Below, one piece after another: positions 6,065 through 63,887 of a DNA stretch of 64,000 nt (position 1 is its first letter; each line of letters opens with the position of its first letter). Position numbers and translations under genes: made by a program. Below the pieces are notes generated by a model. It saw nothing but the letters and a program-made list of their open reading frames with translations. It searched no databases and was not told where the DNA came from. Where the stretch lies: NCBI GenBank assembly GCA_964399675.1, contig CAYNRK010000004.1:12715-76714 (forward strand), given 5' to 3'. This DNA comes from an uncultured Gammaproteobacteria bacterium (GTDB lineage: Bacteria; Patescibacteriota; Patescibacteriia; UBA9934; GWF2-40-263).

Positions 6065-8743
6065 ATGTTAAAAAATCGTACAATACAATTGATGAACAGA
6101 AAATTTTTATGGCATTCGTTGTCTGTTGATGAGACTTTAAAAAAATTAAAGTCATCAATGGACGGACTGACAAAACGCGAAGTGGAGGAACGCCGCGAGC
6201 GTTTTGGTTTAAATGAATTACCAAAAGAAAAACCAGTGAAATGGTGGACAGTTCTTTTCGGTCAATTGTCCGGTCCAATGATTGTTATTCTGGCGATTGC
6301 TGCTTTTATAAGCGCTGGACTTCACGAGTGGGTTGATACTGGTGTTATTGTTGCTGCAATTGTTGTAAACACTGCCATTGGTTTTTTTCAGGAACTAAAA
6401 GCCAGTCGCGCACTTGAACATTTACAAGCTTTGGTTCAACCTCATGCTTTTGTTGTTCGTGATGGTAAAGAAGTATTTTTAACAGCCAAAGAAATTATTC
6501 CAGGAGACGTTTTGGTTTTGAAAACCGGAGACAGTATTACCGCAGACGCTCGTCTTATTGAATCAATTGATCTACAAGTAAACGAAGCGTCCCTTACCGG
6601 TGAATCAGTACCAATTTCAAAATCACTTGAGCCAAATAACCGCGGAACTGTTCTTGCTGAGCGAACCTGCATGGTTTTTGCCGGAACTGCAATAGTTGGT
6701 GGAAGAGGCCGTGCTGTTGTAGCTGCAACCGCAACCGACACAGAGCTTGGGTCAATTGCACAACTTGTTTCAGACACTAAAGAAACAAAAACACCACTGC
6801 AACACGAACTTGGTCGTCTGGCGCGATGGATTGCCGGCGCTGTTGTTTTTATAGTTGTAGCTCTTTTTTTTGCAGGGCTGTTTACCGGTCGAGATATAAC
6901 GGAAATGTTTGAGATTAGCGTTGCGCTTGCAGTGGCCGCTGTTCCTGAAGGATTAATTGTTTCTGTTACGATTATTTTGGCTATTGGAATGCAGAGGATT
7001 TTGCGTCGTAAATCTTTAGTACGTCGTCTTGTTGGTGCTGAAACTCTTGGGAGCGTGTCTGTTATTTGCACTGATAAAACAGGAACACTTACAGAGGGAG
7101 AAATGCAAGCCACGAAATTTTCGTTTCTTGATAAAGATGTTCAGTTGTCTGAAATGGTTGGTAAAACACTTACAGCTGGACCAAAAAAGATGGTAGAAAT
7201 TTCTGTTTTGTGTAATGACGCAAGTGTTGCTGAAACAGATGCAGAAGAAATCGAGCTTAGAGGAAGCCCAACTGAACGGGCGCTAATTGACGCAGCGCTT
7301 CGAGTAAACACTGATACAAAAAAGTTAATTGCATCACACAAGCGGCTTGCTGAGATTCCGTTTGATTCTGAGTACAAGTTTATGGTTACGCTGAATGAAT
7401 GGAAAGGAAAAGAGAATCGATTTTTATTAAAGGGCGCGCCGGATATAATTGTTGATTTTTGTGATCAAGTCGAAGTTGCTGGAAAAAAGAAAAAATTGAA
7501 TTCAACACAAAGGGCTTTGATTGATCAAAAGATAAAGGAGTTAACATCAGGTGGCATTAGATTGATAGCTTGCGCTTACAAGCCTTCAAAACAATCCCAG
7601 CCAGGTATTGATAAATCAAAGCTTGGTGGATTTATTTTTGTTGGATTTATTTGTTTACAAGATCCTTTGAGGCCGGATGTTAAGAAAAATATAATGGCAA
7701 CAAAAAAGGCTGGAGTGCAAACAGTTGTTATTACCGGCGATCATCCGCGCACAGCGCGGGCCATTGCAGAAGAGGCCGGGTTGTATTCGTCTGAAGAAAA
7801 TGTTGTAACAGGTGCTGAGATAGATTTGTGGTCTGATCAGGAGCTTGAAAAACGTGTTGGTAGGATTTCTGTTTATGCGCGTGTTGAGCCAGCACATAAG
7901 ATTCGTATTGTTCGCGCTTGGCAGGCTCGGGGCCATGTTGTTGCAATGACAGGCGATGGTGTTAACGATGCGCCAGCACTTAAAGCCGCGGATATTGGTT
8001 TGGCTTTGGGTTCAGGAACAGAGGTTGCCAAGCAAGCATCAGATGTTGTGATCATGAACAATAATCTTGGCACAATCTCAGCAGCGATTGAACAAGGGCG
8101 TGTGATTTTTGACAACATTAGAAAAGTCACTGTGTATTTAATGTCTGACAGTTTTACAGAAATTATTTTGATTGGTGGATCAATGATGCTTGGACTTCCA
8201 CTTCCACTTTTGCCAGCGCAAATTTTGTGGATCAATCTTGTTGCGGACAGTTTCCCGGGCGTAGGGCTCACGCTCGAACCCGGTGAAAGAGATACCATGA
8301 GTTTTCCTCCTCGGCCAAAGAATGAGCCGGTGTTGAACAAAGAAATGATTTCATTGATTTTTGTCATTGGAATTGTAACGGATGTTTTGTTGTTTGCTTT
8401 GTACTTCTGGCTTCTTGGTTCGTTTGATGATTTAAAGCTGGTTCAAACAATGATGTTTGCTGCGGTTGGAATTGATTCTTTGATGTACGTTTTTGCTGTT
8501 AAGAGTTTTAGAAAGCCGATTTTCAAGATCAATCCGTTTTCCAATAAATGGCTTATTTTAGGTATTTTGGTTGGTTTTGGGCTGATGTTGCTTGCAATTT
8601 TACATCCGTTTTTCCAGGAGATTTTTGAAGTCACATCCCTTGGCTTGTCGCACTGGGGTTTACTGCTTATGATAGGCTTGATAAAACTTATTGGTATTGA
8701 AGTTGCAAAGTGGTGGTTTATTCTTAAAAAGAAAAGAGCATAA
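6065..8743 (+). CDS. P-type cation-transporting ATPase (IIA-like, Ca2+/Mg2+ type)
   Basis: Phosphorylation motif CTDKTGTLT, hinge TGDGVNDAPALKAADIG, and 8-10 TM helices. Confidence 0.9.
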   Translation: MLKNRTIQLMNRKFLWHSLSVDETLKKLKSSMDGLTKREVEERRERFGLNELPKEKPVKWWTVLFGQLSGPMIVILAIAAFISAGLHEWVDTGVIVAAIVVNTAIGFFQELKASRALEHLQALVQPHAFVVRDGKEVFLTAKEIIPGDVLVLKTGDSITADARLIESIDLQVNEASLTGESVPISKSLEPNNRGTVLAERTCMVFAGTAIVGGRGRAVVAATATDTELGSIAQLVSDTKETKTPLQHELGRLARWIAGAVVFIVVALFFAGLFTGRDITEMFEISVALAVAAVPEGLIVSVTIILAIGMQRILRRKSLVRRLVGAETLGSVSVICTDKTGTLTEGEMQATKFSFLDKDVQLSEMVGKTLTAGPKKMVEISVLCNDASVAETDAEEIELRGSPTERALIDAALRVNTDTKKLIASHKRLAEIPFDSEYKFMVTLNEWKGKENRFLLKGAPDIIVDFCDQVEVAGKKKKLNSTQRALIDQKIKELTSGGIRLIACAYKPSKQSQPGIDKSKLGGFIFVGFICLQDPLRPDVKKNIMATKKAGVQTVVITGDHPRTARAIAEEAGLYSSEENVVTGAEIDLWSDQELEKRVGRISVYARVEPAHKIRIVRAWQARGHVVAMTGDGVNDAPALKAADIGLALGSGTEVAKQASDVVIMNNNLGTISAAIEQGRVIFDNIRKVTVYLMSDSFTEIILIGGSMMLGLPLPLLPAQILWINLVADSFPGVGLTLEPGERDTMSFPPRPKNEPVLNKEMISLIFVIGIVTDVLLFALYFWLLGSFDDLKLVQTMMFAAVGIDSLMYVFAVKSFRKPIFKINPFSNKWLILGILVGFGLMLLAILHPFFQEIFEVTSLGLSHWGLLLMIGLIKLIGIEVAKWWFILKKKRA

Positions 8744-8945
8744 CTCATCTTGCGTCGTTGCGAGGAGCGAAGCGACGAAGCAATCTCCGTGTTATTATGT
8801 CATCCCGACCGAGCGAAGCGAGCGGAGGGATCTCGCATATTCGAGATCTCTCCGTGCGCTCGCTTTGCTCGTTTAGTCGAGATGACAAAGCATGACTACA
8901 CGGAGATTGCTTCGTCAGTCGGCTTCGCCTCCTTCCTCGCAAAGA
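8744..8945. repeat. family-A nested palindromic element
   Basis: Same four modules as 2614..2853, almost base-for-base. Confidence 0.85.
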
Positions 8946-8961
8946 CGCGGGAAATACAAAT

Positions 8962-9567
8962 ATGAAAATTAAAAGACCGGCACTGTTTTCACAAATAAAA
9001 AAACAATATCAAACGCGTTCGCAAGCGCGGCGAGAAAACATTGGTAAGGCAAATGACGCGCTCAGTAAATCAAAGCGAGCAATTTTTGCTTTGCATCGAA
9101 ATGATCCTGCTGGTGCAGCAAAGTTGATTAAAGAGGCTGTGCAGTTGTTTGTTGTCTGTGAGAAAAAATTTATAAAGTTTCCAAATTTGATACACGAGGG
9201 AGCTTACAGAGCAGCGCTTGAGGAATATGCAGAGGCTCTTTTGTTTGATCAATATTTGAAAAAAGGATCAATTGGAAAAATTGATAAGCGTGCAATGGCT
9301 CCGGATATTTATTTGGCCGGACTTTCAGATACAACAGGTGAGATTGTTAGATATGCTATTCGCGAAGTTACGTCCGGGAATTTTGACCAGGTTAAAAAGG
9401 CAAAAGCTGCGGTTGAAATGATTATTGAGTTTTTGTTGGATTTGGATCTTACTGGTTATCAACGAACAAAATTTGATCAAGCAAAAAAGAATTTGCGTAG
9501 ACTTGAGGAAATAATTTATGACATATCAATCCGATCCACAGCATCCATGGATTTTTCATCGCGATGA
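8962..9567 (+). CDS. hypothetical protein
   Basis: ORF only. Helical and charged. No motif recognised. Confidence 0.4.
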   Translation: MKIKRPALFSQIKKQYQTRSQARRENIGKANDALSKSKRAIFALHRNDPAGAAKLIKEAVQLFVVCEKKFIKFPNLIHEGAYRAALEEYAEALLFDQYLKKGSIGKIDKRAMAPDIYLAGLSDTTGEIVRYAIREVTSGNFDQVKKAKAAVEMIIEFLLDLDLTGYQRTKFDQAKKNLRRLEEIIYDISIRSTASMDFSSR

Positions 9568-12415: not shown

Positions 12416-12430
12416 TCAGCGGTTTTTTAT
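12396..12430 (+). terminator. rho-independent terminator after murD
   Basis: ccgctg-gaataat-cagcgg followed by TTTTTT. Confidence 0.65.
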
Positions 12431-12442
12431 AAATATATCAAA

Positions 12443-13270
12443 ATGGAATTTGATTATTTTTTATACAATAAAAAAATTTTACCAATTTCAAAAGCGGTCG
12501 TTTCATTGTTTGATATTGAATATGCTTATGGATTCGGTGTTTACGAATCAGTTCGCGTTTCTAAAGGAGCAGTAAATTTTATTGATGACCATATTGAACG
12601 ATTGATTGAATCAGCAAAGGTAATCGGTTTAAAACACAACTTTTCGCAACCAGTGATTGAAAAAGGAATTTTGGGTTTAGTTGCGAAAACCCAATCACCA
12701 TCTTTCAACATAAAAATATTATTGATTGGTGCATCTGAAAAAGAGGATGCATCATTATTTGCTTTGTGTTTAAATCCATTTTTCCTTGATAAGAAATTAT
12801 ACAAAAATGGAGCTGACTTTATTACTTATAATCACGAAAGGGTTTTTCCTCATGCAAAAAGTTTGAACATGCTCCCAAGTTATGTCGCATATAAAAAAGC
12901 TAAGAGGGCTGGTGCTTATGATGCATTATTGATTAATCGGAATGGATTTATTACAGAAGGAACAAGAACAAATTTTTTCTGCATAAAAGACAAAATCATT
13001 TACACACCTCCGGATAAAGAAGTCTTGCTTGGTGTGACAAGAAAAGCATTGTTTAAAGTTGCTCAATTAAATGATTATGAAATCATTCAAAAGAATATCA
13101 GGTTTAGCGATGTTAAAAATTATGAAAATGCATTTGTATCTAGTACTTCAGCAAAAATCCTACCAATAAAAAAAATCAACACAACAATTTTTCAATCACC
13201 ATCAGAAGATCTTAAAAAGTTAATGAATTTGTTTGATGATTTTTTAACGAAGTGCAATGGAAAAATTTGA
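12443..13270 (+). CDS. class IV aminotransferase (D-amino acid / branched-chain type)
   Basis: Fold-type IV pattern (..YGFGVYESVRV.., ..EGTRTNFF..). Adjacent to murD, so a plausible D-Glu/D-Ala supplier. Confidence 0.6.
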   Translation: MEFDYFLYNKKILPISKAVVSLFDIEYAYGFGVYESVRVSKGAVNFIDDHIERLIESAKVIGLKHNFSQPVIEKGILGLVAKTQSPSFNIKILLIGASEKEDASLFALCLNPFFLDKKLYKNGADFITYNHERVFPHAKSLNMLPSYVAYKKAKRAGAYDALLINRNGFITEGTRTNFFCIKDKIIYTPPDKEVLLGVTRKALFKVAQLNDYEIIQKNIRFSDVKNYENAFVSSTSAKILPIKKINTTIFQSPSEDLKKLMNLFDDFLTKCNGKI

Positions 13271-13296
13271 GTTTTTGATAAAAAACGATTCGGAAA

Positions 13297-13330
13297 ATTT
13301 GACAAACAGGGAAAAATTTGGTTTAATATA
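13297..13330 (+). promoter_or_regulatory. sigma70-like promoter (TTGACA-18-TAATAT) of tRNA-like unit 1
   Basis: Hexamers read directly. The same layout is repeated at 15588..15622. Confidence 0.5.
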
Positions 13331-13427
13331 AATGCAGATGAGGGTTTAAAAACCTCCACCAACTGATGTCAATAAAATCTCCCTTCCAAATTTGTGATGG
13401 GAGATTTTATTTATTTCCCGAGTTCAT

Positions 13428-13504
13428 GGGCTTGTGGAGGTAATTGGTAACCTCATCTGCTTTGACATCAGAAGTTGCGGGTTCGAATCCCGTCGAGTCC
13501 ACCA
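13428..13504 (+). tRNA. tRNA-like gene with Val(GAC)-type loop TTGACAT inside a 9-nt loop closed by a 4-bp stem
   Basis: Good acceptor, D and T arms plus CCA. Anticodon arm is tctg/caga with loop cTTTGACAt. A 12-bp leader-trailer helix (cccgagttcatgg / ccatgactcggg) encloses the body, and a terminator follows. Confidence 0.5.
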
Positions 13505-13602
13505 TGACTCGGGTTCGAGCAAATCCACTTTTAATTAAGTGGATTTGTTTTTGTAAGAAATCAGCTGGAACAATAAGTGGTTTTTTGATAGTCTGGTTTG
13601 GT

Positions 13603-15582
13603 ATGGAGTTCATAAAAGATTTCAAAAATATTAATAAAGACAATGTAGAAATTGCCGGTGGCAAAGGTGCGTCTTTGGGAGAGATGACGCAAGCTGGGCT
13701 TCCAGTTCCGCCTGGTTTTGTTGTGTTAGCAGGCACCTTTGATTTTTTTCTTAAAGAAACAGACATAAATGTTGAGATTGATGCAGTGCTCGATACTGTT
13801 GATCACAAAGTGGTTCATACAGTCCAAGATGCATCTGAGAAAATTCAAGCAATGATTTTAAATGCAGTAATGCCAAAAGAGATCCAAGACACAATTCAAT
13901 CAAGTTTTGAAAAGCTGGATGCAGATTTGGTTGCTGTACGATCAAGTGCAACTTCTGAAGACAGCGCGACTGCTGCTTGGGCGGGGCAGCTGGATACTTT
14001 TTTGAACACGACTTCTGATGAATTGATCGAGAACATTAAGAAATGTTGGGCCTCGCTTTTTACACCAAGAGCGATTTTTTATCGATTTGAAAAAGAACTT
14101 CATCAGGAAAATATTTCTGTGGCAGTTGTTGTTCAGAAAATGATTGACAGTGACGTTTCTGGAATTGCTTTTTCAGTTCATCCTGTTACAGAAGATCCAA
14201 ATCAAATGATTATTGAAGCAGCATTTGGTCTTGGCGAGGCGATTGTTTCAGGACAAGTTACACCTGATGCTTATGTTGTTGATAAAGAAACATTTGAGAA
14301 TATTGATATTAATGTAAACCAAGAAAAACAAGTTTTGTCAGAAGACCAGATTCTGAACCTTGCCAAAGAGGTTGTGAAAATCGAATCACATTATGGCTTC
14401 CCGGTTGATGTTGAGTGGGCAATGAAAGATGGGGAGTTGTTTATTCTTCAAAGCAGACCGATTACGACTCTTTCACCAAAACTTAAGGATAAAGTACTTA
14501 ATATTGATGATTATTACCAGTGTTTGTTTCGTGTAATTGCAGGGGGTGTGGCCTTTCTTACATCTGATGTGTTTCGTAGGTATTACGAGACATTACAGGC
14601 AATTTTGACAGTTAAAGATGGGGTTTGGACAAGCTATATTCCAATTGCGGTACGTGATCAATTATTAGAAGAGGGGATTAAACTCTATTCGAATAGAAAA
14701 GCATTTGAAGAATATCAAACGGCTTTTAATACTTATATTAAATTTTCCGATACGTATTTTGACAAAATACTTAATAAAAAAAATCTAACAAAAAGTGATG
14801 TAAAAAAAGGTTACGAAACAGCAGATAAACATTTTTCATTTTATTCAAAAACTGAATTCTTTTATACAGACAAAGCGTATGAGTTATCTCTTGAGGCAAA
14901 CCAACAAGAGTTGAGGGAAAATCTGAGTCGTTTAGAAGAAGTTAAAAATAATGGTAGAGAACATCTGAACCGCATGTTTTTTGGAGGAGATGGGTATATT
15001 AGTAGAATGTCTGTGAAAGTTGCTCGGCAATTTGGTGTTTCAGAAGAAGATGTTTATTTGTACAAGGTTCAAGAAGTGATTGATTTGTTTGATCACAATA
15101 GAGTGTCTGCTAAGGAATTAAAGAGACGATTAGATTCATTTGTAACCATCAGCGATGGAGGTTCTACTAAGTATTTAGTCGGTGACGAGGCGATTGCATT
15201 CATCAATAAATTTGAAGAAAAACAAAATGTTAAAGGGGGTGTGTTGCGTGGCATGAGTGCTAATGTGGGTAAAGTAACGGGAAGAGTTAAGATTATACCA
15301 TCTGATTACTATTTTGATTTTTCAGTTCTTGATTCAATAATTGATTCAATGAATGAAGGAGATGTATTGGTTGCAGAAACAACATCTCCAGAATTAATGA
15401 GAGCTTGTAAAAAAGCATCTGCGATAATTACTGATCAGGGGGGGCTTCTATCACACGCTGCAATTGTAAGTCGGGAAATGGAAATACCGTGTATTGTTGC
15501 GGTTTCAAATGCAACTCAAGTTTTAAAAGACGGTGACGAGGTTGAGGTTGATGCAAACAATGGAGTGGTTCGCAAAATTTGA
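13603..15582 (+). CDS. PEP-utilising enzyme family protein (pyruvate,water dikinase / rifampicin-phosphotransferase-like)
   Basis: N-terminal PPDK-type ATP/PEP-binding domain (GGKGASLGEM, AVRSSATSEDSATAAWAG) and C-terminal mobile His domain (TDQGGLLSHAAIVSREMEIPCIV). Start moved from 13444 to the first Met downstream of the tRNA-like element. Confidence 0.75.
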   Translation: MEFIKDFKNINKDNVEIAGGKGASLGEMTQAGLPVPPGFVVLAGTFDFFLKETDINVEIDAVLDTVDHKVVHTVQDASEKIQAMILNAVMPKEIQDTIQSSFEKLDADLVAVRSSATSEDSATAAWAGQLDTFLNTTSDELIENIKKCWASLFTPRAIFYRFEKELHQENISVAVVVQKMIDSDVSGIAFSVHPVTEDPNQMIIEAAFGLGEAIVSGQVTPDAYVVDKETFENIDINVNQEKQVLSEDQILNLAKEVVKIESHYGFPVDVEWAMKDGELFILQSRPITTLSPKLKDKVLNIDDYYQCLFRVIAGGVAFLTSDVFRRYYETLQAILTVKDGVWTSYIPIAVRDQLLEEGIKLYSNRKAFEEYQTAFNTYIKFSDTYFDKILNKKNLTKSDVKKGYETADKHFSFYSKTEFFYTDKAYELSLEANQQELRENLSRLEEVKNNGREHLNRMFFGGDGYISRMSVKVARQFGVSEEDVYLYKVQEVIDLFDHNRVSAKELKRRLDSFVTISDGGSTKYLVGDEAIAFINKFEEKQNVKGGVLRGMSANVGKVTGRVKIIPSDYYFDFSVLDSIIDSMNEGDVLVAETTSPELMRACKKASAIITDQGGLLSHAAIVSREMEIPCIVAVSNATQVLKDGDEVEVDANNGVVRKI

Positions 15583-15587
15583 TAAAC

Positions 15588-15622
15588 AGACAAAAATTTG
15601 ATTTAATATAACTACGATCGAG
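15588..15622 (+). promoter_or_regulatory. sigma70-like promoter (TTGATA-18-TAATAT) of tRNA-like unit 2
   Basis: Paralogous to 13297..13330. Confidence 0.45.
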
Positions 15623-15705
15623 GTTATCCTCTGTAAATAAATCGGTATCAACCAAAAAGAACTCCCTAAAATTACGGGAGTTCTTTTTGTATAACCCGGG
15701 CTCAA

Positions 15706-15781
15706 GGGCCTGTGGGGGTAATGGTAACCCCGATCGAGTTGATACCGATAGCTGCCGGTTCGAATCCGGTCGGGTCCACCA
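15706..15781 (+). tRNA. tRNA-like gene with Ile(GAT)-type loop TTGATAC inside a 9-nt loop closed by a 4-bp stem
   Basis: Same architecture as 13428..13504 (stem atcg/cgat, loop agTTGATAc). Leader-trailer helix cccggg..cccggg and a downstream terminator hairpin. Confidence 0.5.
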
Positions 15782-15849
15782 TGACCCGGGACTAAACAAA
15801 CCCACCTTAGTTTAGGTGGGTTTGTTGTCTTAGAAATATTGTCCAGCAT

Positions 15850-16326
15850 TCATGTTCGTGACGACTTCTCCCATTCGCGGACAATTGTTAGCGATTCGTT
15901 TTCCAGTTCAGGTAAGTGGACTAATTCTATGGGTTGTGTCAGTTCAGAGTTAATGCTTGATAACTTGTAGTGTCCGCCGTAGTATTCATTTGACACTTTT
16001 TCTTTTTGACATGCAAAAACTATTTTTGGAATTGCACTCCAGCTAGAAGCGCCAAGGCACATAATGCAAGGTTGCATAGATGCATACAGCACCGCGTCAG
16101 ACAGATCACAAGATTGAAGATTTTTGCACGCTGCTCGAATCGCGGCCATCTCGCCATGATTGGTTGGGTCGTTCTGCTTGTTGCCGACGCTGATTCCTTC
16201 ACTAATAACTTTCTCGTTTTTTACGATAACCGCACCGGCAGGAAAGCCTCCTTGCGCTACTGATTCTTTTGCCTTTTCTATTGCTTGTTGTAAAAAATGT
16301 TTGTCTTTCATAGATAATAATTTCAT
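15850..16326 (-). CDS. CMP/dCMP-type zinc deaminase (TadA / guanine deaminase-like)
   Basis: HGEMAAI ... PCIMCLGA zinc-binding signature. Confidence 0.75.
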   Translation of the reverse strand: MKLLSMKDKHFLQQAIEKAKESVAQGGFPAGAVIVKNEKVISEGISVGNKQNDPTNHGEMAAIRAACKNLQSCDLSDAVLYASMQPCIMCLGASSWSAIPKIVFACQKEKVSNEYYGGHYKLSSINSELTQPIELVHLPELENESLTIVREWEKSSRT

Positions 16327-16478
16327 TACTTATGCGGAAGAATATCAACTTTTTATTTTTTTCACAATATTGACAAACATAATTTGACAAAACACAAAAA
16401 ATTTAATTTAATACAATTATCCAGTTGAGATATTATCTCCACGTCGGTGTCAACAAAAATCTCCCTTCCAAATTTATG

Positions 16479-16757
16479 TTAGGGGGTTTTTTGTTTGCCC
16501 CGGGCAAATTTTTTTTGCGCAGCAAGCGCTTTTTCAATACACTCATTTGGATCCAATCCAAGATCATCACACCAACGAATGGATGAGACAATCATATTGC
16601 CAAGTTCCTTTTTCAATTCATCATCCTCAACGCCATCGCGAGCCTGTCTACACAAATCACCATAAACAACACCCATTGCAACGACAATTTCATTAAGTGT
16701 CATTTTTTTATCTCCCCAAATATTTCTGCTTTGTAAAAGAAGTTCTTGAATGGTCAT
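16479..16757 (-). CDS. MazG-like nucleotide pyrophosphohydrolase (small single-domain)
   Basis: About 90-aa all-alpha protein with the MazG-type acidic motif E..E...D. Confidence 0.55.
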   Translation of the reverse strand: MTIQELLLQSRNIWGDKKMTLNEIVVAMGVVYGDLCRQARDGVEDDELKKELGNMIVSSIRWCDDLGLDPNECIEKALAAQKKFARGKQKTP

Positions 16758-16825
16758 ATGAGTTTATTATAGCTCGATTCCGTGCTAAAATGAATTTTGT
16801 CCAGGTAATCTGGATTTTTTAGCAT

Positions 16826-19077: not shown

Positions 19078-20032
19078 ACATTTAGAACCTGAGCCTACAA
19101 ACGAGAACGAAACCAACTTACAAAAACCAAAATCTTCTTTATCAAATTTTTTTTCTACAAAGCGTGGAAAGCAAGTGATTGGAATTATTGTTGTTTTGGT
19201 GGTTGTTATAGGGCTTGTATTTTCGGTTTATAAACGAAGTCCTGATGACAAGCTTGTAAGGTTTGTGTCTGCAATTATTCCAATCCCTGCAATTAGCGTG
19301 GATTCACACTCGGTTCGGATGTCTGAATATTTGGTGGAATATGATGCTTTGATTAATTATTTTAATTCCATTGGAGAGGTTGATGAGATTCAAAAGGATC
19401 AAATTAAAGATACTATTGTTGAGACTTTGATTAATAAAGAGGTTGTTAATATTTTAACGGAGGAACACGGTATTTCCGTTGATGATGAAATAGTTGAAGC
19501 ATATTACAATGAAGTTGTTCTTGGTCAGGGAGGACAAGAGTCGTTTGAAACAGAGGCTCAAGAAATGTTTGGTTGGACAAATGAAGAGTTTAAAGAACGT
19601 ATTGTAGAGCCGATTGTGCTGGCACTTAAAATGAGTTCGTATGTGTTAAGCAATGTTGAGATCCAGTCGGGAAAGCGCAGCACTGTTGATAATGCACATG
19701 AGCGGATTATGAATGGGGAAGATTTTGTTTTAGTGGCAAAAGAGGTGCACACGCAAGAGCAGGTGATGTTTGAAACAGATCTTGGGTTTATCAAAATGTC
19801 TGAGTTACCAGAGGAGTTGGTTCATGTGATTGGTGTGCTTCAAGAAGATGAGGTTACAGATGTTATTGATATGTCAGATGCGTTTGTTATTTTCCAACTT
19901 AAAGAAAGAATTAAAACCGGCGATGATTCGCAATTGCATTTGTACTCGCTGACTGTGCCGAAAAAAACATTGGAGGATATGGCTAAAGAGTATTTGTTGA
20001 CGGCAAAGGTTAAAAGATACATCAAATCATAA
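19067..20032 (+). CDS. hypothetical membrane-anchored protein
   Basis: ORF with one N-terminal TM helix. Start set at the first Met after the upstream gene. Weak SurA/parvulin-like flavour only. Confidence 0.4.
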   Translation: MKIEHLEPEPTNENETNLQKPKSSLSNFFSTKRGKQVIGIIVVLVVVIGLVFSVYKRSPDDKLVRFVSAIIPIPAISVDSHSVRMSEYLVEYDALINYFNSIGEVDEIQKDQIKDTIVETLINKEVVNILTEEHGISVDDEIVEAYYNEVVLGQGGQESFETEAQEMFGWTNEEFKERIVEPIVLALKMSSYVLSNVEIQSGKRSTVDNAHERIMNGEDFVLVAKEVHTQEQVMFETDLGFIKMSELPEELVHVIGVLQEDEVTDVIDMSDAFVIFQLKERIKTGDDSQLHLYSLTVPKKTLEDMAKEYLLTAKVKRYIKS

Positions 20033-20066
20033 AAACAGACATGATAATTTTTTTTGGGGGACTCAT

Positions 20067-20142
20067 GCCACCGTAGCTCAGCTGGTAGAGCAATACTTTC
20101 GTAAAGTAGAGGTCAGCGGTTCGACTCCGCTCGGTGGCTCCA
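20067..20142 (+). tRNA. tRNA-Thr (anticodon CGT)
   Basis: Manual cloverleaf. Loop TTCGTAA, T-arm GGTTCGACTCC, encoded CCA. Confidence 0.85.
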
Positions 20143-20158
20143 GAAAGGATCATCTGTG

Positions 20159-20232
20159 GCGGATGTAGTTCAATGGTAGAATGTAAGCTTCCCAAGCTTG
20201 AGGCGGGGGTTCGATTCCCCTCATCCGCTCCA
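20159..20232 (+). tRNA. tRNA-Gly (anticodon CCC)
   Basis: Manual cloverleaf. Loop TTCCCAA, T-arm GGGGGTTCGATTCCCCT, encoded CCA. Confidence 0.85.
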
Positions 20233-20312
20233 AGGGGTCTTTTTTTGTTTGTAAACAGAAAACCCCCGCAGTCCAAGTCGGACTTTGGGGGCAGGGGGAG
20301 AAGTGGTTGTGG

Positions 20313-21620
20313 CTACTGACAGACGACGTTGAACTCGCCGCTGCCGAGACCACATTCGTTCCAGCGGGCCGAAGTGCAGGTGACCGTCTTGAATTCGTTG
20401 CCACCGGCCTGGGCTCGACCGACGAATGCTGCCACGTGCGTTTCGAACGGTCCTCCGCCTTCCACGCAGACTGCGTCACCGATTTCGTAGTTGGTGTGGA
20501 AGTAGACCTCGCGATTGGACGGGATCTCGAGCGGGATCTCGAGGTTCCAGATCATGAGGTACATGTGCGCTCGCTCCCGCGCCTCATCCAAATCCCGGAC
20601 GAGCGGAAGGTTCACGTACTCTACCCTGTCCTCGTACGGAACTGCCAGGTAGAGCTGGAAGGTTGTGTTGCGTCCCATTGCCCAGCTTGCACCTACCAGG
20701 ATTTCGATCGTGTCGATCGTCACCTGGTTGTACCTGGTCCTGACACGAACCGCCTGGGTGTCCAGACGGTTGTCCACTAGATCACTGCAATTGACCACCT
20801 CGGGCACGATGCGTTCGGGCTGGTCTGTGCAGAGAGCCTTGTTGCAGGGCTCGTTGGGTTCGTTGAGTTCCACACATTCGCCGTCCAGACAGAGACCGCT
20901 TTCACACGAGGAGAAGTCCTGCATTGCGCTGTGCACACATTCGCCGTCTGGCGTGCACCGATCCTGCGTGCACTCGTTGCTATCTCCGCAGTGATCGTTT
21001 CCGGTGCACTCCACGCAGCCGGTTGTTGATACTACTCCTTCGGTCTGTGAGATGCACCACCGTTCGGGCTCGTCACATACTCGAATGAGGTTCTCGCATC
21101 GGTTGTTGATGCAGAAGTACTCGCGACACGGCTCGCCTGTGATTGGGCAGTGACGGTCTTCGGTACAGTCCATGCCCGGATCCTCACCAAAGCAGACACC
21201 TTCCTCACACCGGCCATGCGTACCGCACGGCACGTTGTGGAGCGGGACACTCTCGCACCTACCGAAGTAGTTGCACTTGTCGAACGTGCACGGGTTGTTG
21301 TCCAGGCAATGCATCGGATCCGTGCATTCGATACAGCCCGGAACCTTGGTGTTGTAGGACGCGTGGGGCACGCACCACTCACCCTCGCCACAGAGGACCG
21401 ATGCCCACTCGCATCGGTTGTTGAGGCAGACCGGGATGAGACAGGCGTTGCCAGTCCCGCAGTCCAGATCCTCCCAACACTCGATGTTGGGATCGGTTGG
21501 TTGCGAACCCGCGTCCGTGTCGGAGTACGGAACTCCTGTGAACACGAGTTCACGTGTTCGTGCGTCATCGCATCCCCCGAGGAACACAACGAGCAGGGAA
21601 GCGATCATCAGCTTGTACAT
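20313..21620 (-). CDS. cysteine-rich secreted lipoprotein with Cys-repeat modules (GC-rich island)
   Basis: Signal peptide plus lipobox (..VVFLGGC). Many CxxDxxC / CTxDxC repeats. Strong SD aaggtgg. Composition about 60% GC against the AT-rich flanks. Confidence 0.7.
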   Translation of the reverse strand: MYKLMIASLLVVFLGGCDDARTRELVFTGVPYSDTDAGSQPTDPNIECWEDLDCGTGNACLIPVCLNNRCEWASVLCGEGEWCVPHASYNTKVPGCIECTDPMHCLDNNPCTFDKCNYFGRCESVPLHNVPCGTHGRCEEGVCFGEDPGMDCTEDRHCPITGEPCREYFCINNRCENLIRVCDEPERWCISQTEGVVSTTGCVECTGNDHCGDSNECTQDRCTPDGECVHSAMQDFSSCESGLCLDGECVELNEPNEPCNKALCTDQPERIVPEVVNCSDLVDNRLDTQAVRVRTRYNQVTIDTIEILVGASWAMGRNTTFQLYLAVPYEDRVEYVNLPLVRDLDEARERAHMYLMIWNLEIPLEIPSNREVYFHTNYEIGDAVCVEGGGPFETHVAAFVGRAQAGGNEFKTVTCTSARWNECGLGSGEFNVVCQ

Positions 21621-21824
21621 GTTTCCACCTTTGTGGATGACCGGCCATCGGCCTACCTTTTACGCTCGCGCGTCCGTTTGTCATTGCTGAAAATGACATT
21701 CGGAGGTCAAGATCTCTAAACAATTCAATCAGGTTGGCGCCTAATCAAACAGAGAAACAATATACCAGAAAATTAGGCTTTTGTCAACAGTTCTCGTATG
21801 GTAAAATGAATAAGCTTTTGGAAT

Positions 21825-22505
21825 ATGATCCGTCTTAAAAACGTTTCAAAATTTTATCTACCCAACATTGTTGGTGTGCAAGGTGTTAGTCTCCACATTC
21901 CGGCCGGGGAATTTGTTTCTATTGTGGGTCAAAGCGGAACCGGAAAAACCACACTTGCAAAGCTTTTGTTTGTTGAGGAGCGACCAAGTCGAGGGAAAAT
22001 TGAGATTGGTGGATGGGATATTAGTAAAATTGATGAGCGTGAGGTTCCACTTCTTCGCAGGCAAATGGGAGTTGTTTTTCAGGATTTTAAGTTGCTTCCC
22101 AAGAAAACCGTTTACGAAAATATTGCTTTTGCACTTCAGGTTGCGGGTGCCAGGCCAAAACGAATTCGAGAAGTTGTGCCACGCGTCTTAGATATTGTGG
22201 GGCTTTCAGATAAACACAATCGCTATCCAAAACAACTTTCAGGCGGGGAGGCACAGCGTGTTGCAATTGGAAGAGCGCTTGTTCATCAACCAAAATTGTT
22301 TGTAGCTGATGAGCCAACCGGAAATCTTGATACTTTAAACACGCTTGAAATAATTGATCTTCTTAAAAAAATAAATGAGTTTGGCACAACAGTTGTTTTG
22401 GTCACACACAACCGAGAGGTTGTTAATCGTTTGAAAAAAAGAGTCATCACATTAGATGACGGTCGGGTTGTTTCAGATGTGGAAGAGGGAAGATATAAAT
22501 TATAA
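21825..22505 (+). CDS. ftsE: cell-division ABC ATPase
   Basis: Walker A GQSGTGKTT, ABC signature LSGGEAQRVAIGRAL, Walker B LFVADEPTGNLD. Confidence 0.85.
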   Translation: MIRLKNVSKFYLPNIVGVQGVSLHIPAGEFVSIVGQSGTGKTTLAKLLFVEERPSRGKIEIGGWDISKIDEREVPLLRRQMGVVFQDFKLLPKKTVYENIAFALQVAGARPKRIREVVPRVLDIVGLSDKHNRYPKQLSGGEAQRVAIGRALVHQPKLFVADEPTGNLDTLNTLEIIDLLKKINEFGTTVVLVTHNREVVNRLKKRVITLDDGRVVSDVEEGRYKL

Positions 22506-42637: not shown

Positions 42638-44005
42638 ATGTTGCTTTCTTTTCATGGGGCGGCGCGGGGGGTAACCGGATCTTGTCATTTATTAAAATTA
42701 AAAGACGCTGATGGCAAAGATCATCAGCTTCTTTTTGATTGTGGAATGTTTCAAGGCGAAAATTTGTGTGGATCAAAAAACTTGGAAGACTTTGGTTTTG
42801 ATCCAAAACAAGTTGATGCGTTATTTATCACACACCCTCATGTGGATCACACCGGACGAATACCAAAGTTGGTCAAGGAAGGTTTTTCCGGTTCGATTTA
42901 TATGACGCATCCGTGCCATGGATTATCAAAGCTTGTTTTGGAAGATGCGTATCATATTATGACAGAAGATGCTGAAAAGTGTGGAAGTTCTGTTTTGTAT
43001 GAATTGAAAGATTTAATGAAATCATTTGAACAAATAAAAACAGTTTCATATCACGAGCAGGTGGATGTTGCTCCAGGTGTTAGTATCATGTTCCATGATG
43101 CAGGGCATGTGTTAGGCTCCTCGTTTATTTCTGTTGAAGCAGAAGGTAAGCGTGTTGTTTTTTCAGGTGATATTGGAAACGACAATGTGCCAATATTGCC
43201 GGACACAGAGGCCCTTTCAAAAGCTGATGTTGTTATTTGTGAAGCAACATATGGACATAGAGTTCATGAGGAAAGGTCTGAGAGGTCAAAAAAGCTGAAA
43301 GAGGCTTTGGAGGAAACAATAAAAAATAAATCGGTTTTGATGATTCCGGCTTTTTCAATTGAGCGAACCCAAGAATTGTTATACGAGATTGACAGGATTC
43401 TTTTGAATGAACTTAAAACAAAGATTCCGATTTTTCTTGATAGTCCAATGGCAATAAAGGCTACTCAGCTTTATCGAGATTTTAAACAGTTTTTACAATT
43501 TGATGTTTCAATTTTAAGCGAACCGGATCGGGACTTTTTTACTTTTAAGAATCTGCGTGAGACTCTTTCAAGAGATGAATCAAAAGAGATTAACTATACA
43601 AAACCACCAAAGGTTATTATTGCCGGCTCTGGCATGATGTCTGGGGGACGAATTATGCATCATTTGATTCGTTATCTTCCTGATTCAAAAAATCAAGTTT
43701 TGATTATTGGTTTTCAGGCCAAAGGAACACTTGGGCGAAAGATTTTTGAGGGAGAAAAAAAGGTGCACATATTTCGAGAGGAGGTTGAAGTAAAAGCAAA
43801 GGTGTCAGCCATTGGCGCGTTTTCAGCGCATGGTGACATGAACAAACTTACAAAATGGCTTAAGCCGGAAGATGGGAAAGTGCCTGAACAGATTTTCCTT
43901 GTGCATGGGGATCCTGAAGCAAAAGAATTATTTGCAACTCATCTAAGACACAAATTACGAACTGACGTGATTGTGCCCGGGTATCATAGCGAACACGAAA
44001 TTTAA
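42638..44005 (+). CDS. beta-CASP metallo-beta-lactamase family ribonuclease (RNase J / CPSF-like)
   Basis: HxHxDH (ITHPHVDHTG) plus beta-CASP motifs. Length about 455 aa. Confidence 0.7.
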   Translation: MLLSFHGAARGVTGSCHLLKLKDADGKDHQLLFDCGMFQGENLCGSKNLEDFGFDPKQVDALFITHPHVDHTGRIPKLVKEGFSGSIYMTHPCHGLSKLVLEDAYHIMTEDAEKCGSSVLYELKDLMKSFEQIKTVSYHEQVDVAPGVSIMFHDAGHVLGSSFISVEAEGKRVVFSGDIGNDNVPILPDTEALSKADVVICEATYGHRVHEERSERSKKLKEALEETIKNKSVLMIPAFSIERTQELLYEIDRILLNELKTKIPIFLDSPMAIKATQLYRDFKQFLQFDVSILSEPDRDFFTFKNLRETLSRDESKEINYTKPPKVIIAGSGMMSGGRIMHHLIRYLPDSKNQVLIIGFQAKGTLGRKIFEGEKKVHIFREEVEVKAKVSAIGAFSAHGDMNKLTKWLKPEDGKVPEQIFLVHGDPEAKELFATHLRHKLRTDVIVPGYHSEHEI

Positions 44006-44032
44006 AACACCCGCCTTGAGCGGGTGTTTTTG
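44006..44032 (+). terminator. rho-independent terminator
   Basis: cacccgc-cttga-gcgggtg followed by TTTTT. Confidence 0.75.
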
Positions 44033-44130
44033 TCACCCCCCTCTTTTTGCGTCTTTGCGAGCCCCCTTTCGCGGAAAGGGGCGAAGCCCGTCCGAACGGC
44101 CGCAAGGCCGGGCGGGCAATCTCCGTTGAG
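44033..44130. repeat. GC-rich family-A variant (gcgtctttgcgagccccctttcgcggaaaggggcgaagcccgtccgaacgg..)
   Basis: Module 1 plus a cccctttcgcggaaagggg hairpin. Confidence 0.6.
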
Positions 44131-44245
44131 AACTATGTAGGACAGTCACGTTGTATAATTTCGGCAGACTCGCTTCGCTCGTGCTGGCGAAATTATACAA
44201 TATACCTGTTGATGGCGTCCTGGAGGTTCGTTGGAGGATTGTGGG
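44131..44245 (+). repeat. family-B repeat (about 110 bp), copy 1
   Basis: gacagtcacgttgtataatttcggcag..ctggcgaaattatacaa..cctgttgatgg..ttcgttggaggattgtg. Near-identical to 45412..45530 and 56521..56635. Confidence 0.85.
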
Positions 44246-44462
44246 GGACAGTCATGTTGTTTCACATGCACACAGGAAAAATTTTCTTGCTGCGGAACTC
44301 GTGCTCTTTGTTGTTTATTTTAAAGGTAAGCACTCAGACAGTCCTCGCTGCAAAAATTTTCCCTGTGTGCATGTGAAACAAATCCGAGGGCATTATTAAA
44401 TAGAAAAACCGCCAGAGCTTTCAGTGAAAGATGGCGATCTGATTGCTTGCTGAGTTCGTGGC

Positions 44463-45296
44463 CTAGGCCGCGAGCGGGAAGCGGTCGTGAAGGAGCTTCA
44501 TGGCGTTGAGCCCGATGAGTGCGGCTTCTTCGTCGCCGGTGACCTCGAACGTGTTGGTCTGGCGATTGCCGTAGATGGCGTTGACCGAGCCGGCCCAGTA
44601 GCCGCCATGGGTCATGCACCAGACGTAGATCGTTGCCGACTCCATGGAGTAGAGCAATACACCGCGTTGGGTCAGCTCGTCGTGGAGCATTTGCAAGCGC
44701 GGAGGGATGTAGCCCATGTCGTCCGGTCGTGCCTGGCCTTCGTTGAAGCACGTGGTTGTTGCCTCAATGCCGACGTGGTGCGGCAGGCTGAGAGTCTCGG
44801 CAGCCTCGATGAGCGCAGCGATCACTCGGTGGTCAGCGAATGCAGGATACTCGATCGGCGCCCAGTTGGTGCTGGCGCCATCCAGTCGAACAGCCCCGCT
44901 TGCGATGGCTGATTCACCGACGTTCGGCTCTCTCTGGAGCGTGGAGCATGAGCCCACACGGATAAAGCGCTCTGCTCCCGAACGCACTGCCTCGGGCAGC
45001 ACAATGCCCGTGGATGCGCTGCCCATGCCGGTTGTGACCACAGACATGGGAACGCCCTGGAATTCGCCGGTGAAGCTCCTGAGCCCCCGGTGATCACCGA
45101 CCTTGATCGCCCCGGGACCGAAGAAGCGGCTCACCAACTCCTCAGCATCCTTGATCGGATCTGTTCCGGCGATCAGCTCTGCCCGTTCGGGTGAGCCCAC
45201 CAACAGGCAGTGGGGCGCCAGATCGTGTGCGTCTGTGTGGAGATGGTATTGCTTGCCACCTGCAGAGGTTGGGGCGTCAGCCTTTCTATCGCTCAT
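44463..45296 (-). CDS. nucleoside phosphorylase, PNP/UDP family 1 (purine/uridine phosphorylase-like), GC-rich island
   Basis: ..HCLLVGSPERAELIAG.. N-terminal fold and ..TGMGSASTGIVLPE.. segment typical of PNP_UDP_1. Confidence 0.7.
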   Translation of the reverse strand: MSDRKADAPTSAGGKQYHLHTDAHDLAPHCLLVGSPERAELIAGTDPIKDAEELVSRFFGPGAIKVGDHRGLRSFTGEFQGVPMSVVTTGMGSASTGIVLPEAVRSGAERFIRVGSCSTLQREPNVGESAIASGAVRLDGASTNWAPIEYPAFADHRVIAALIEAAETLSLPHHVGIEATTTCFNEGQARPDDMGYIPPRLQMLHDELTQRGVLLYSMESATIYVWCMTHGGYWAGSVNAIYGNRQTNTFEVTGDEEAALIGLNAMKLLHDRFPLAA

Positions 45297-45411
45297 GAAA
45301 CCCTCCTGGTTTCGCAGAGGTTCAAAAACAAAAACCGTTCGTATATTTACAACGGTTTAAGTGTTCTGTCAACCATGTCGCTTTATACGAAGCAATCTCC
45401 GGGAGACTTTT

Positions 45412-45530
45412 GGGGGACAGTCACGTTGTATAATTTCGGCAGACTCGCTTCGCTCGTGCTGGCGAAATTATACAACGTACCTGTTGATGGTGGCTTGGGG
45501 GTTCGTTGGAGGATTGTGTGAGTGCGGGTG
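45412..45530 (+). repeat. family-B repeat, copy 2 (direct repeat of copy 1)
   Basis: Over 90% identity by eye. Confidence 0.85.
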
Positions 45531-45576
45531 TTTAATAATGGACAGTCTGTTAATTTTATTTTAGTATGATCTCGTT

Positions 45577-60358: not shown

Positions 60359-60464
60359 ATCCCGCGCTCTAGGCGCGCGCCTTGGGTGCTGGAAATTTGT
60401 GAAGAGATGTGGCGAGTGGTATGACCAAGAGTCATCCGACTTGCCGCAACCTCTTCAGAAATTT

Positions 60465-60545
60465 CTCATGTCATCCCGAGCGAGCGCAGCGAGCCGAGGG
60501 ATCTCGCATATCCGAGATTTCTCCACTCGCTGCGCTCGGTCGAAA
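60465..60545. repeat. family-A palindromic element
   Basis: gtcatcccgagcgagcgcagcgagccgagggatctcgcatatccgagatttctcc..tcgaaatgac. Confidence 0.8.
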
Positions 60546-60563
60546 TGACAAGGAAGTAAGGAG

Positions 60564-61124: not shown

Positions 61125-61179
61125 AGAGCGCCAGACCATCTACTCGGTCCAGCGCTCATTTCTTTTTATTATTTTGCGT

Positions 61180-61262
61180 CTTTGCGAGAAAGCCCGTCAG
61201 ACGGGCTGACGAAGCAATCCCCGTAACAACGGAGATTGCTTCACCCCCACTTTTTTCAGAAG
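61180..61262. repeat. family-A palindromic element
   Basis: gcgtctttgcgagaaagcccgtcagacgggctgacgaagcaatccccgt..acggagattgcttc..cgcaacgacgca. Confidence 0.8.
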
Positions 61263-61286
61263 TGGGGGTTCGCAACGACGCAATGA

Positions 61287-61658: not shown

Positions 61659-61664
61659 ATCTGT

Positions 61665-61750
61665 TATCCTGCGTCATTGCGAGGAGGCCGAAGGCCGACG
61701 AAGCAATCTCCGTACACGGGGATTGCTTCGGTCGCAAAGCTCCCTCGCAA
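61665..61750. repeat. family-A palindromic element
   Basis: gtcattgcgaggaggccgaaggccgacgaagcaatctccgtacacggggattgcttcggtcgcaaagctccctcgcaaagacgc. Confidence 0.8.
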
Positions 61751-61764
61751 AGACGCAGAGGCAA

Positions 61765-63867: not shown

Positions 63868-63887
63868 TACTTATTAAATATTTTTTT

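Follow-up and report, generated by a model that had tools for sequence, protein, structure and literature searches.

Bacterial antisense pairs such as CopA/CopT, RNAI/RNAII and hok/sok start recognition at a U-turn (UNR) loop; their stems are weakened by mismatches or bulges, which favours strand exchange, and a free 5' tail completes the stable complex. The 3'ETS-leuZ spacer of a tRNA precursor acts as a small-RNA sponge, and Streptomyces tRNA-ProA is an extra tRNA-type gene whose identity and decoding are uncoupled from normal translation. We know of no non-proteinogenic or mistranslating tRNA with a cognate antisense leader or an internal terminator. In Staphylococcus aureus a dedicated, non-proteinogenic tRNA-Gly has been described, and the bacterial alanine acceptor identity set comprises A73, G2-C71 and G3·U70 (PMC9976931). 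The leader-trailer interaction of mascRNA forms a helix that continues the acceptor stem and is able to promote processing by RNase P (PMC8457004). Here we analyse a 64,000-nucleotide (nt) stretch of DNA from an uncultured member of the Patescibacteria (contig CAYNRK010000004.1 of assembly GCA_964399675.1, positions 12,715 to 76,714; hereafter the window), in which two paralogous units each encode a tRNA-shaped RNA behind a leader complementary to its own anticodon arm.

The architecture of these units defines a conserved and previously undescribed RNA family of Patescibacteria, a conclusion that is well supported by the comparisons below. With moderate confidence we read each unit as a self-contained RNA-RNA module, in which a co-transcribed RNA directed against the anticodon arm would sequester or regulate an alanine-accepting tRNA mimic.

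Leaders complementary to their own anticodon arm

Unit 1 (approximately 13299-13553) and unit 2 (approximately 15579-15829) lie on the + strand, in direct orientation around a gene resembling phosphoenolpyruvate (PEP) synthase, and align over ~290 nt with 81% column identity. They share a 37-nt block, AAATTTGAYAAACAGNNAAAAATTTGNTTTAATATAA, which occurs exactly twice in the window against an expectation of 0. The block is the promoter region (from -35 to about +1) and not transcribed leader. The tRNA-shaped bodies, detected with ARAGORN and Rfam, are 77 nt (unit 1) and 76 nt (unit 2) long and ~85% identical; within the anticodon arm 7/17 positions are identical and 10/17 have diverged, and the leaders have changed to match. 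In both units the elements follow the same order: promoter, box A', hairpin H1, box B', terminator-type hairpin T1, leader strand, tRNA-like body, trailer strand and a second hairpin, T2 (Table 1). The helix formed by the leader and trailer strands reads CCCGGG/CCCGGG in unit 2 and CCCGAG/CTCGGG in unit 1, a compensatory change, and the other family units carry a helix of 6-8 bp, of differing sequence, at the equivalent place.

The original prediction for unit 2, made from the letters of this stretch, had already recognised a tRNA-like unit paralogous to unit 1, its 76-nt body with an ATCG/CGAT stem and an A31-C39 mismatch, a leader-trailer helix and the direct orientation of both units on either side of 13603..15582. 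All of these hold on inspection of the sequence and of the Rfam alignment. Its terminator exists as the final hairpin with a U-rich tail, but the second terminator-type hairpin, T1 inside the leader, had been overlooked, as had the complementary boxes of the leader. The two promoter hexamers that it named, TTGATA and TAATAT, are both present, but the spacing is 19 nt (or 17 nt if TTTAAT serves as the -10 element) and not 18, and its conserved "leader block" proved to be the promoter region described above.

Further members were sought in metagenomes with the pattern GGTAACCNC-N20-27-GGTTCGAATCC-N7-TCCACCA, which fixes U70-C71-C72-A73-CCA and parts of the D and T arms. The scan returned 11 loci, eight of them distinct, with an identical element order throughout. 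In one of these loci (L086) the first unit is followed 0.9 kb downstream by a second, giving nine distinct units outside the window and 11 with the window, from nine contigs; unless stated otherwise, counts below refer to these 11 units. The two L086 units stand in tandem (8130-9330), are orthogonal to one another and flank a gene for a membrane protein of ~200 amino acids (aa; 8440-9029) that is unrelated to the PEP-type gene of the window; pairs of units around one gene thus recur. As to strain variation, the other samples carry identical sequence. A covariance model of the body (R1) scored members at 87.6-97.2 bits and any ordinary tRNA in 780 kb of related DNA at no more than 58.3 bits, with ordinary tRNA-Ala genes among the best non-member matches (51-56 bits). 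Neither gathering thresholds nor E<=10 brought up anything in Rfam 15 beyond weak tRNA matches, and no family there covers the leader. Pattern scans of viral contigs yielded 0 matches, and nothing in the full-text literature searched describes a tRNA-like RNA whose leader is complementary to it.

At the start of each leader stand two boxes that complement the tRNA-like RNA of the same unit. Box A' targets the 3' strand of the D stem, nt 26 and the 5' strand of the anticodon stem (target a), whilst box B' targets the anticodon loop and the 3' strand of the stem (target b). The leader is therefore arranged as a circularly permuted reverse complement of tRNA-like positions ~10-43, broken between 31 and 32: both partners lie on the + strand, ~90-110 nt apart, with A' placed 5' of B' while a is 5' of b. 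Across the family, helix 1 (formed by A') is 93.6% paired with 7/10 pairs changed on both sides, and helix 2 (formed by B') is 90.2% paired with 10/12 pairs so changed; together, 91.7% of cells are paired and double changes occur in 17/22 pairs. The covariation score of the boxes was 0.688 against 0.229 in shuffles, none of 500 of which reached it, and controls in which the boxes had been slid along the sequence were only 29-40% paired. The triplet at 34-36 covaries with its "codon" in the leader.

Furthermore, the pairing is specific to each unit. Two-site duplex energies averaged -43.4 kcal/mol for cognate pairs and -22.2 ± 5.3 kcal/mol for 110 non-cognate pairs, and the best partner of every leader was its own tRNA-like RNA (11/11). 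Co-resident pairs, namely the two window units and the two L086 units, are mutually orthogonal in duplex energy. Cofolded heterodimers were more stable than the monomers by 2.5-13.7 kcal/mol in 11/11 cases, with nested folding, in which only one helix of the two can be counted. Upstream of 41 ordinary tRNA genes, complements to this region reached 8.0 nt on average at their longest, compared with 13.4 nt in the family, and no other target of the two anticodon arms was found within the window.

The leaders also share a fold. Hairpin H1 (GAGG...CCTC), which copies the D stem, is present in 11/11 leaders, and in the predicted structure of every free leader it is enclosed by a helix, P1, that mirrors the anticodon stem. 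P1 is followed by 3-7 single-stranded nt complementary to the anticodon loop and then by T1 (11/11), which directly follows B' and has 6-8 U among its last 10 nt in all units. The only primary-sequence motif common to the leaders is GAGG(UU)...(AA)CCUC, which argues against an aptamer for a ligand or protein and for recognition by base pairing alone. Upstream, all 11 units have a TTGACA-like -35 element ~17 nt from an A/T-rich hexamer that lies 4-8 nt before A', from which transcription is predicted to start 0-5 nt before A'. Folding and conservation suggest that T1 is an intrinsic-terminator-type element at which transcription would terminate.

Two other uses of the leader were considered and rejected. 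A potential leader peptide, ATGCAGATGAGGGTTTAA, is encoded in unit 1 and has no equivalent in any other unit. A guide RNA of the box C/D, H/ACA or hammerhead-like type was suggested by the sequence CUGAUG in unit 1, which is merely the complement of its anticodon arm; the opposite order of the arms rules out an H/ACA or hammerhead guide.

The tRNA-shaped body and its acceptor

ARAGORN labels both bodies tRNA-Ser(tga), with the anticodon at an unusual offset, and both exceed the Rfam gathering score for tRNA (29 bits). Their scores of 39.8 bits (unit 2) and 32.3 bits (unit 1) compare with 53.9-72.2 bits for the six other tRNAs of the window. The acceptor stem of unit 2 contains G1-C72, G2-C71, G3·U70 and A73, followed by an encoded CCA, and unit 1 is alike in these respects. 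The D arm of unit 2 is GGGGU/ACCCC with U14 and its T arm GCCGG-UUCGAAU-CCGGU; the variable loop is 4 nt in all 11 units, and neither window unit has a long variable arm. The anticodon stem of unit 2, ATCG/CGAT with an A31·C39 mismatch, closes the loop GUUGAUA (U33, U34, G35, A36, U37, A38).

The elements of the alanine identity set, A73, G2-C71 and G3·U70, occur in 11/11 units, of which U70, C71, C72 and A73 were fixed by the search pattern and G1-G3 were not. The G3·U70 pair is retained as a wobble while neighbouring pairs covary. These features point to alanine, and not isoleucine or serine, as the acceptor identity, and charging by alanyl-tRNA synthetase (AlaRS) is predicted. The triplet at 34-36 does not follow this identity: it is UGA, UGU, UGC or UAG across the family, and the NGC anticodon of alanine is found only in the first L086 unit (UGC).

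As a fold, the cloverleaf is conserved. Over the 11 units 94.8% of cells are paired, 13 pairs show double changes, including 4-69, 5-68, 6-67 and 7-66, and none of 500 shuffles matched the score. The T arm, acceptor stem, G18G19 elbow and CCA, which alanylation and tRNA processing call for, are all kept; the anticodon arm is non-canonical, evolves freely and is different in every unit. Its stem covaries and yet is the weakest helix (81.8% paired), with 31-39 mismatched in 6/11 units and a bulge in two, and it is with these same weakened bases that the leader boxes pair. U14, not A14, is invariant, so that the conserved U8-A14 core feature is missing. In all units whose 7-nt loop register is clear, C or U stands at position 37 (the loop of L087 is irregular); a G or an A occupies position 32 in 7/11 units, and U33 and U34 are invariant.

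Ordinary tRNA genes for serine, isoleucine or valine in a tandem operon, or tRNA pseudogenes in decay, are almost certainly not what these units represent, their ARAGORN calls and Rfam scores notwithstanding. Bacterial serine identity consists of a long variable arm and G73 (reviewed in PMC9976931); the 4-nt variable loop and A73 rule out tRNA-Ser(UGA). The label "Ile(GAT)-type" in the original prediction required a shifted 9-nt loop, whereas the 7-nt loop GUUGAUA places UGA, not GAU, at 34-36. Judged by covariance model, the bodies do pass as tRNA at the gathering score, but they do so at low scores, the isoleucine label fails, and the combination of G3·U70/A73, U14 and a pyrimidine at 37 misfits each of the proposed identities. 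Decay is difficult to reconcile with 11 units from nine contigs that keep the fold through 13 covarying pairs. Nor does the suggested simple tandem operon survive, as every unit is equipped with a promoter of its own, an internal terminator and a leader that is self-complementary. These are absent from the normal tRNA genes of the window (Lys, Thr-Gly and Gln), which have a short plain leader and neither internal terminator nor leader-trailer helix.

ARAGORN found no tmRNA, and the Rfam tmRNA and permuted-tmRNA models scored 11.6 and 20.8 bits against a threshold of 47.

Three structural observations accompany these results. Invariance of U14 and A21 allows the D arm to be drawn with 5 bp in its stem (GAGGU/ACCUC) and 7-8 nt in its loop (AAU(U)GGUA), unlike the standard 4-bp stem with its U8-A14 tertiary pair. 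The unit of L087 (identical to L094; 1070-1145) looks partly degenerate: its acceptor stem is mismatched at 6-67, its anticodon arm is irregular and its A' matches less well, yet B' retains pairing over 12 nt. Lastly, in 7/11 units (L085, both of L086, L088, L090, L092 and L093) the trailer strand is followed immediately by NCCA, mostly as ACCA-AC, a sequence that is degenerate in both window units. Such an NCCA 3' of the outer helix is a second "helix + NCCA" signal, external to the tRNA-like RNA, and may serve RNase P as a determinant.

A strand-exchange model and its alternatives

Under the reading that we favour, one sigma-70-type promoter would give rise to two products. The first would be a leader RNA of 75-145 nt ending at T1 (~75-105 nt in ten of eleven units) and the second, generated by read-through, a tRNA-shaped RNA of 76-77 nt atop the leader-trailer stem, presumably cut free of that stem by RNase P together with 3' processing. 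Nothing resembling a promoter fits into the interval that separates T1 from the tRNA-like body, and the body must therefore come from read-through of T1. By the same arrangement, with T1 preceding the body, the leader would be made at least stoichiometrically and probably in excess.

In the free leader the boxes would be masked within the two small helices P1 and H1, with only the stretch complementary to the anticodon loop exposed. The anticodon loop (U33-U34-R35, a UNR U-turn) would first dock on this exposed stretch. Strand exchange would then open the mismatch-weakened anticodon stem, whose two strands, s1 and s2, have their complements s1' and s2' in the leader: s2 would pair with s2' and s1 with s1', and the exchange may extend further into the 3' strand of the D stem. 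What would drive the reaction is the gain of extra loop pairs, together with the repair of mismatches weakening the two intramolecular stems. The product would contain ~22 bp of leader:tRNA-like pairing that leaves the acceptor/T minihelix free and ties up the rest. This minihelix is the part that AlaRS needs. The leader would thereby behave as a cognate "anti-tRNA" that sequesters, times or destabilises the tRNA mimic and keeps its anticodon arm off the ribosome. The data establish the anatomy and the family, covariation in the cloverleaf and in both boxes, orthogonality between co-resident copies and the alanine identity set, whereas alanylation, pairing in vivo, the start of transcription, its end at T1 and a biological purpose are what we infer.

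Several observations weigh against this model. The search pattern fixes U70, so the conservation of that base is partly built in and the diversity of the family is underestimated. We cut the A' and B' segments by register, which inflates the percentage of paired cells, although the slid and non-cognate controls argue against a register artefact. A strict consensus scan called neither the promoter nor T1 or T2. It misses them because position 2 of the -10 element is not A, T1 has a loop of 9 nt and an A tract pairs with part of the U tract. Accordingly, promoter and terminators are called from folding and from conservation in 11 units. Among the non-Watson-Crick cells, G·U combinations outnumber A·C only modestly (11 versus 6), such that support for pairing of + strand RNA specifically is moderate. 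Due to the permuted order of A' and B', the two helices formed together would make a putative pseudoknot-type or strand-swapped complex. A leader that was at all times stable and in excess would sequester the tRNA-like RNA permanently, in which case the complex of the two might itself be the functional form. Finally, no structure competing with T1, that is to say no antiterminator, was found in the 11 leaders, which leaves read-through unexplained.

This last point bears directly on a T-box-like alternative, in which the mature tRNA-like RNA would bind the nascent leader through A' and B' and alter termination at T1, making the leader a sensor in a self-sensing attenuator. The order of promoter, tRNA-binding leader, terminator and regulated gene fits such a device. 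Moreover, in all units the anti-anticodon stretch left exposed lies immediately against the 5' foot of T1, and in the minimum free energy fold of unit 2 the B':b helix is stacked directly on T1. We nevertheless consider it unlikely: beyond the want of any pairing that competes with T1, B' never overlaps the T1 stem, the 11 leaders contain neither a T-box sequence nor a conserved complement to the NCCA end, and Rfam gave no T-box match.

A second alternative retains the leader as an antagonist and gives the tRNA mimic a role in decoding. As an RNA-only toxin and antidote, or a device for regulated mistranslation, the alanine-charged mimic would decode Ser UCN, Thr ACN, Leu CUN and Ala GCN codons through U34, with the leader as its antidote. 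Alanine identity is joined to a non-alanine triplet in 10/11 units, every triplet belongs to a four-codon box, and U33 and U34 never vary. The distribution is patchy, with variable genomic location and local multiplication of copies; the specificity pairs diverge fast and are orthogonal within one genome; and the antidote would be transcribed first and in excess. However, a pyrimidine at 37, the purine at 32 in 7/11 units and a weak 31-39 pair make for poor decoding, lability of the leader is unsupported, and nothing links the module to phage or plasmid DNA, the viral contigs having given no match. On balance we hold this to be decidedly unlikely. The related conjecture that a rogue, alanine-charged adaptor with Ser-, Thr-, Leu- or Ala-box anticodons is kept inactive by its own co-transcribed anti-anticodon RNA until a change in transcription or in leader stability releases it is speculative and in our judgement also unlikely. 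If true, ultra-small symbiotic bacteria would possess in it either an RNA toxin with its antidote or a switch that governs alanine mistranslation across the proteome.

Genomic setting and comparison with known systems

The coordinates of both units are collected in Table 1.

Table 1. Elements of the two tRNA-like units, in window coordinates.
Unit	Element	Position	Strand	Remarks
2	Promoter	15579..15609	+	-35 TTGATA at 15579-15584
2	-10, option 1 (TTTAAT)	15602-15607	+	17-nt spacer; TG just upstream
2	-10, option 2 (TAATAT)	15604-15609	+	19-nt spacer
2	Box A' ACGATCGAGG	15614..15623	+	Complements positions 22-31; 8/10 paired
2	H1, GAGG-ttat-CCTC	15620..15631	+	Folding; mirrors D stem of tRNA-like RNA
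2	Box B' ATCGGTATCAAC	15641..15652	+	Perfect complement of positions 32-43 (15737-15748)
2	T1, 14-bp hairpin CAAAAAGAACTCCC / GGGAGTTCTTTTTG	15653..15694	+	Folding; hairpin 15653-15689, then tail; U-rich 3' side
2	Leader strand CCCGGG	15695..15700	+	Pairs with 15785-15790
2	tRNA-like RNA	15706..15781	+	ARAGORN; Rfam tRNA 39.8 bits; family model R1 93.8 bits
2	Trailer strand CCCGGG	15785..15790	+	Sequence, folding
2	T2, hairpin CAAACCCACCT / AGGTGGGTTTG	15794..15829	+	Folding; U-rich tail
1	Promoter	13299-13327	+	
1	Box A' GCAGATGAGG	13334-13343	+	Pairs with CCTCATCTGC (positions 22-31)
1	H1	13340-13356	+	
1	Box B' CTGATGTCAA	13363-13372	+	Pairs with TTGACATCAG (positions 33-42)
1	T1	13374-13416	+	
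1	Leader-trailer helix CCCGAG/CTCGGG	13417-13422 with 13508-13513	+	
1	tRNA-like body	13428-13504	+	
1	T2	13519-13553	+	

The gene between the units (13603-15582, +) encodes a PPDK_N ATP-grasp domain and a PEP-utilizers swivel His domain, without the PEP/pyruvate TIM barrel; the nearest solved relatives of its product are PEP synthases and rifampin phosphotransferase (PDB 5fbs, 5hv1). This is the architecture of rifampin phosphotransferases; the family is very common in Patescibacteria and DPANN, often in proteins of at least 1000 aa. Gene callers extend the reading frame to 692 aa, overlapping the tRNA-like gene. The gene is not a conserved partner of the units, as no family unit was present in 80 related GTDB loci. 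Ordinary tRNA genes do occur near its relatives: tRNA-Ala lies upstream in L002, L038 and L052, and tRNA-Arg and tRNA-Val flank the gene in L011. In the window, its stop codon sits within the -35 hexamer of unit 2, and the homology between the units reaches ~12 nt upstream of that hexamer (GGTTCGCAAAA versus GATTCGGAAAA; 15560-15584 against 13280-13304) into a stretch that, in unit 2, is the last codons of the gene (GVVRKI*). The extent of the homology suggests that unit 2 was copied along with the end of the PEP-type gene to give unit 1.

Both units lie in a block of 4.4 kb (12416-16825) that interrupts the junction of murD and a mur ligase gene in a division and cell-wall cluster. The block holds a class IV aminotransferase gene, unit 1, the PEP-type gene, unit 2, a cytidine/tRNA-type deaminase gene (-) and a 92-aa open reading frame (ORF; -), and shows no shift in GC content. 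Homologues of the window's MurD at 70-79% identity are named Candidatus Uhrbacteria. Three close relatives (L095, L097 and L098) share the order P-type ATPase, translin-like, GT2, murD, mur ligase, bPH, divIC, surA-like and tRNA-Thr/Gly, with the mur ligase gene directly after murD and nothing between; they have neither a unit nor a PEP-type gene at the syntenic site and no unit within ±6 kb. The block is thus lineage-specific. In a fourth relative (L096) only an 89-aa ORF is inserted at the same point, and in L092 (MurD 60% identical) murD is followed by a different ORF and one unit. The class IV aminotransferase gene beside unit 1, like the PEP-type gene, has relatives that stand in unrelated contexts without units.

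The original prediction had offered, as its other explanation, a cassette inserted between duplicated tRNA-like attachment sequences, to be checked by the gene order of relatives. An insertion was rightly suspected: the PEP-type gene is absent at the syntenic site. The tRNA-like units are absent there too, however, and lie inside the block and not at its borders. We consider it highly improbable that the units are the duplicated attachment sites of a mobile cassette, or that A'/a and B'/b act as inverted repeats for recombination at the DNA level. Such a cassette would account for the two direct copies around one gene, here and in L086, for the absence of the block from relatives and for homology that runs into the end of the PEP-type gene. 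Nevertheless, the repeats are complete, diverged units with their own promoters and with leaders matched to their anticodon arms, no integrase or recombinase domain was found in 12416-16825, and no sister strain was found with an empty site flanked by one unit and a junction in the tRNA-like 3' half. Single units elsewhere show the same inverted complementarity, with G·U pairs tolerated. We regard the block as an insertion for which the units were not the attachment sites.

Elsewhere the units neighbour efp, ftsK, ileS, recJ (L090, at a place where the window has none) and cysK-like genes. No conserved protein neighbour was found, and the unit therefore looks like a stand-alone RNA module; the units appear to be patchily placed RNA genes that duplicate locally. 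The same variety of neighbours speaks against a dedicated, non-ribosomal alanine donor for aminoacylation of cell wall or lipid, whose leader would keep it off the ribosome. Dedicated non-proteinogenic tRNAs such as that for glycine in Staphylococcus are known (PMC9976931), units sit in a mur/division cluster both in the window and in L092, and alanine identity is kept while the anticodon loop is unfit for decoding. Even so, no member of the FemAB or other aminoacyl-tRNA transferase families was found among the ~30 window proteins scanned, close relatives do without units at this locus, and we judge such a role very unlikely.

Some further features of the window and its relatives were noted. 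A CMP/dCMP-type (TadA/MafB19-like) deaminase gene (15850-16326, -) converges on unit 2, ending 20 nt after T2; the tRNA-like loop has U34, not A34. GC content is 0.49-0.54 at 20001-22000, 44001-46000 and 60001-64000, against a background of ~0.39. The 435-aa product of an ORF at 20313-21620 (-) matches only a Dictyostelium-type Cys-rich repeat. In L098, an IS200/IS605 Y1 transposase gene (2014-2862) lies beside tRNA-Lys in the otherwise syntenic cluster.

The family adds a new non-coding RNA to the Patescibacteria, whose repertoire of such RNAs is almost unexplored. If the predicted pairing is real in vivo, it would to our knowledge be the first natural tRNA-shaped RNA with a dedicated antisense partner, or "anti-tRNA", in its own transcription unit. 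It would also offer a natural design for strand exchange, in which a toehold is exposed, the guide boxes are masked and mismatches weaken the target stem. An alanine-accepting adaptor kept from decoding raises the possibility of use as a non-ribosomal alanine donor, in ribosome rescue, in controlled mistranslation or as an RNA toxin. Additionally, mis-calling of the bodies as tRNA-Ser(UGA) distorts tRNA inventories and inferences of codon usage for these genomes.

The module lacks at least one defining feature of each known system with which it was compared. With the tRNA-Ala(UGC) of Patescibacteria (L002, 3271-3346; also L038) the bodies share the acceptor GGGCC.../...GGTCC, G3·U70, A73, CCA and a nearly identical T arm (GCCGGTTCGAATCCGG). 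They differ from it in the D arm with U14, in the variable anticodon arm with a pyrimidine at 37 and in a triplet other than NGC in 10/11 units, and they alone are framed by a leader-trailer helix and preceded by a leader that carries antisense boxes and T1. The tRNA-like domain of tmRNA is likewise an alanine-type (G3·U70) mimic without ordinary anticodon decoding, although charging is a prediction for the family; the family RNA is a complete cloverleaf with an anticodon arm and has neither a tag reading frame nor pseudoknots. Non-proteinogenic and mistranslating tRNAs resemble it as extra genes in which acceptor identity is uncoupled from the anticodon or from decoding. Duplications left by integrase at attachment sites are short direct repeats identical to the 3' part of a tRNA, one at each end of an island with an integrase, whereas here whole, diverged units are repeated.

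As in T-box riboswitches, a 5' leader base-pairs with an anticodon, the leader "codon" covaries and an intrinsic terminator follows. The leaders have no Stem I or K-turn, T-box sequence, antiterminator or reading of NCCA, and no Rfam match to this class at E<=10. The pairing covers ~22 nt, takes in both strands of the anticodon stem and reaches into the D stem, which requires the tRNA to unfold, and the downstream "gene" is the ligand itself. 3'ETS-leuZ and mascRNA offer precedents for a co-transcribed spacer that base-pairs and for a leader-trailer helix, respectively; the spacer of the family differs in targeting the tRNA-like RNA itself and in carrying its own terminator. Antisense kissing systems share fast-diverging specificity, orthogonal co-resident copies, the UNR loop, weakened stems and a free 5' tail. 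They differ in that the family has a circularly permuted antisense RNA, aimed at a tRNA-shaped target and not at an mRNA or replication primer. With cis-encoded antisense pairs the module has in common an extended, covarying complementarity nucleated at an exposed loop; where those partners originate from opposite strands, here both come from one strand within one transcription unit.

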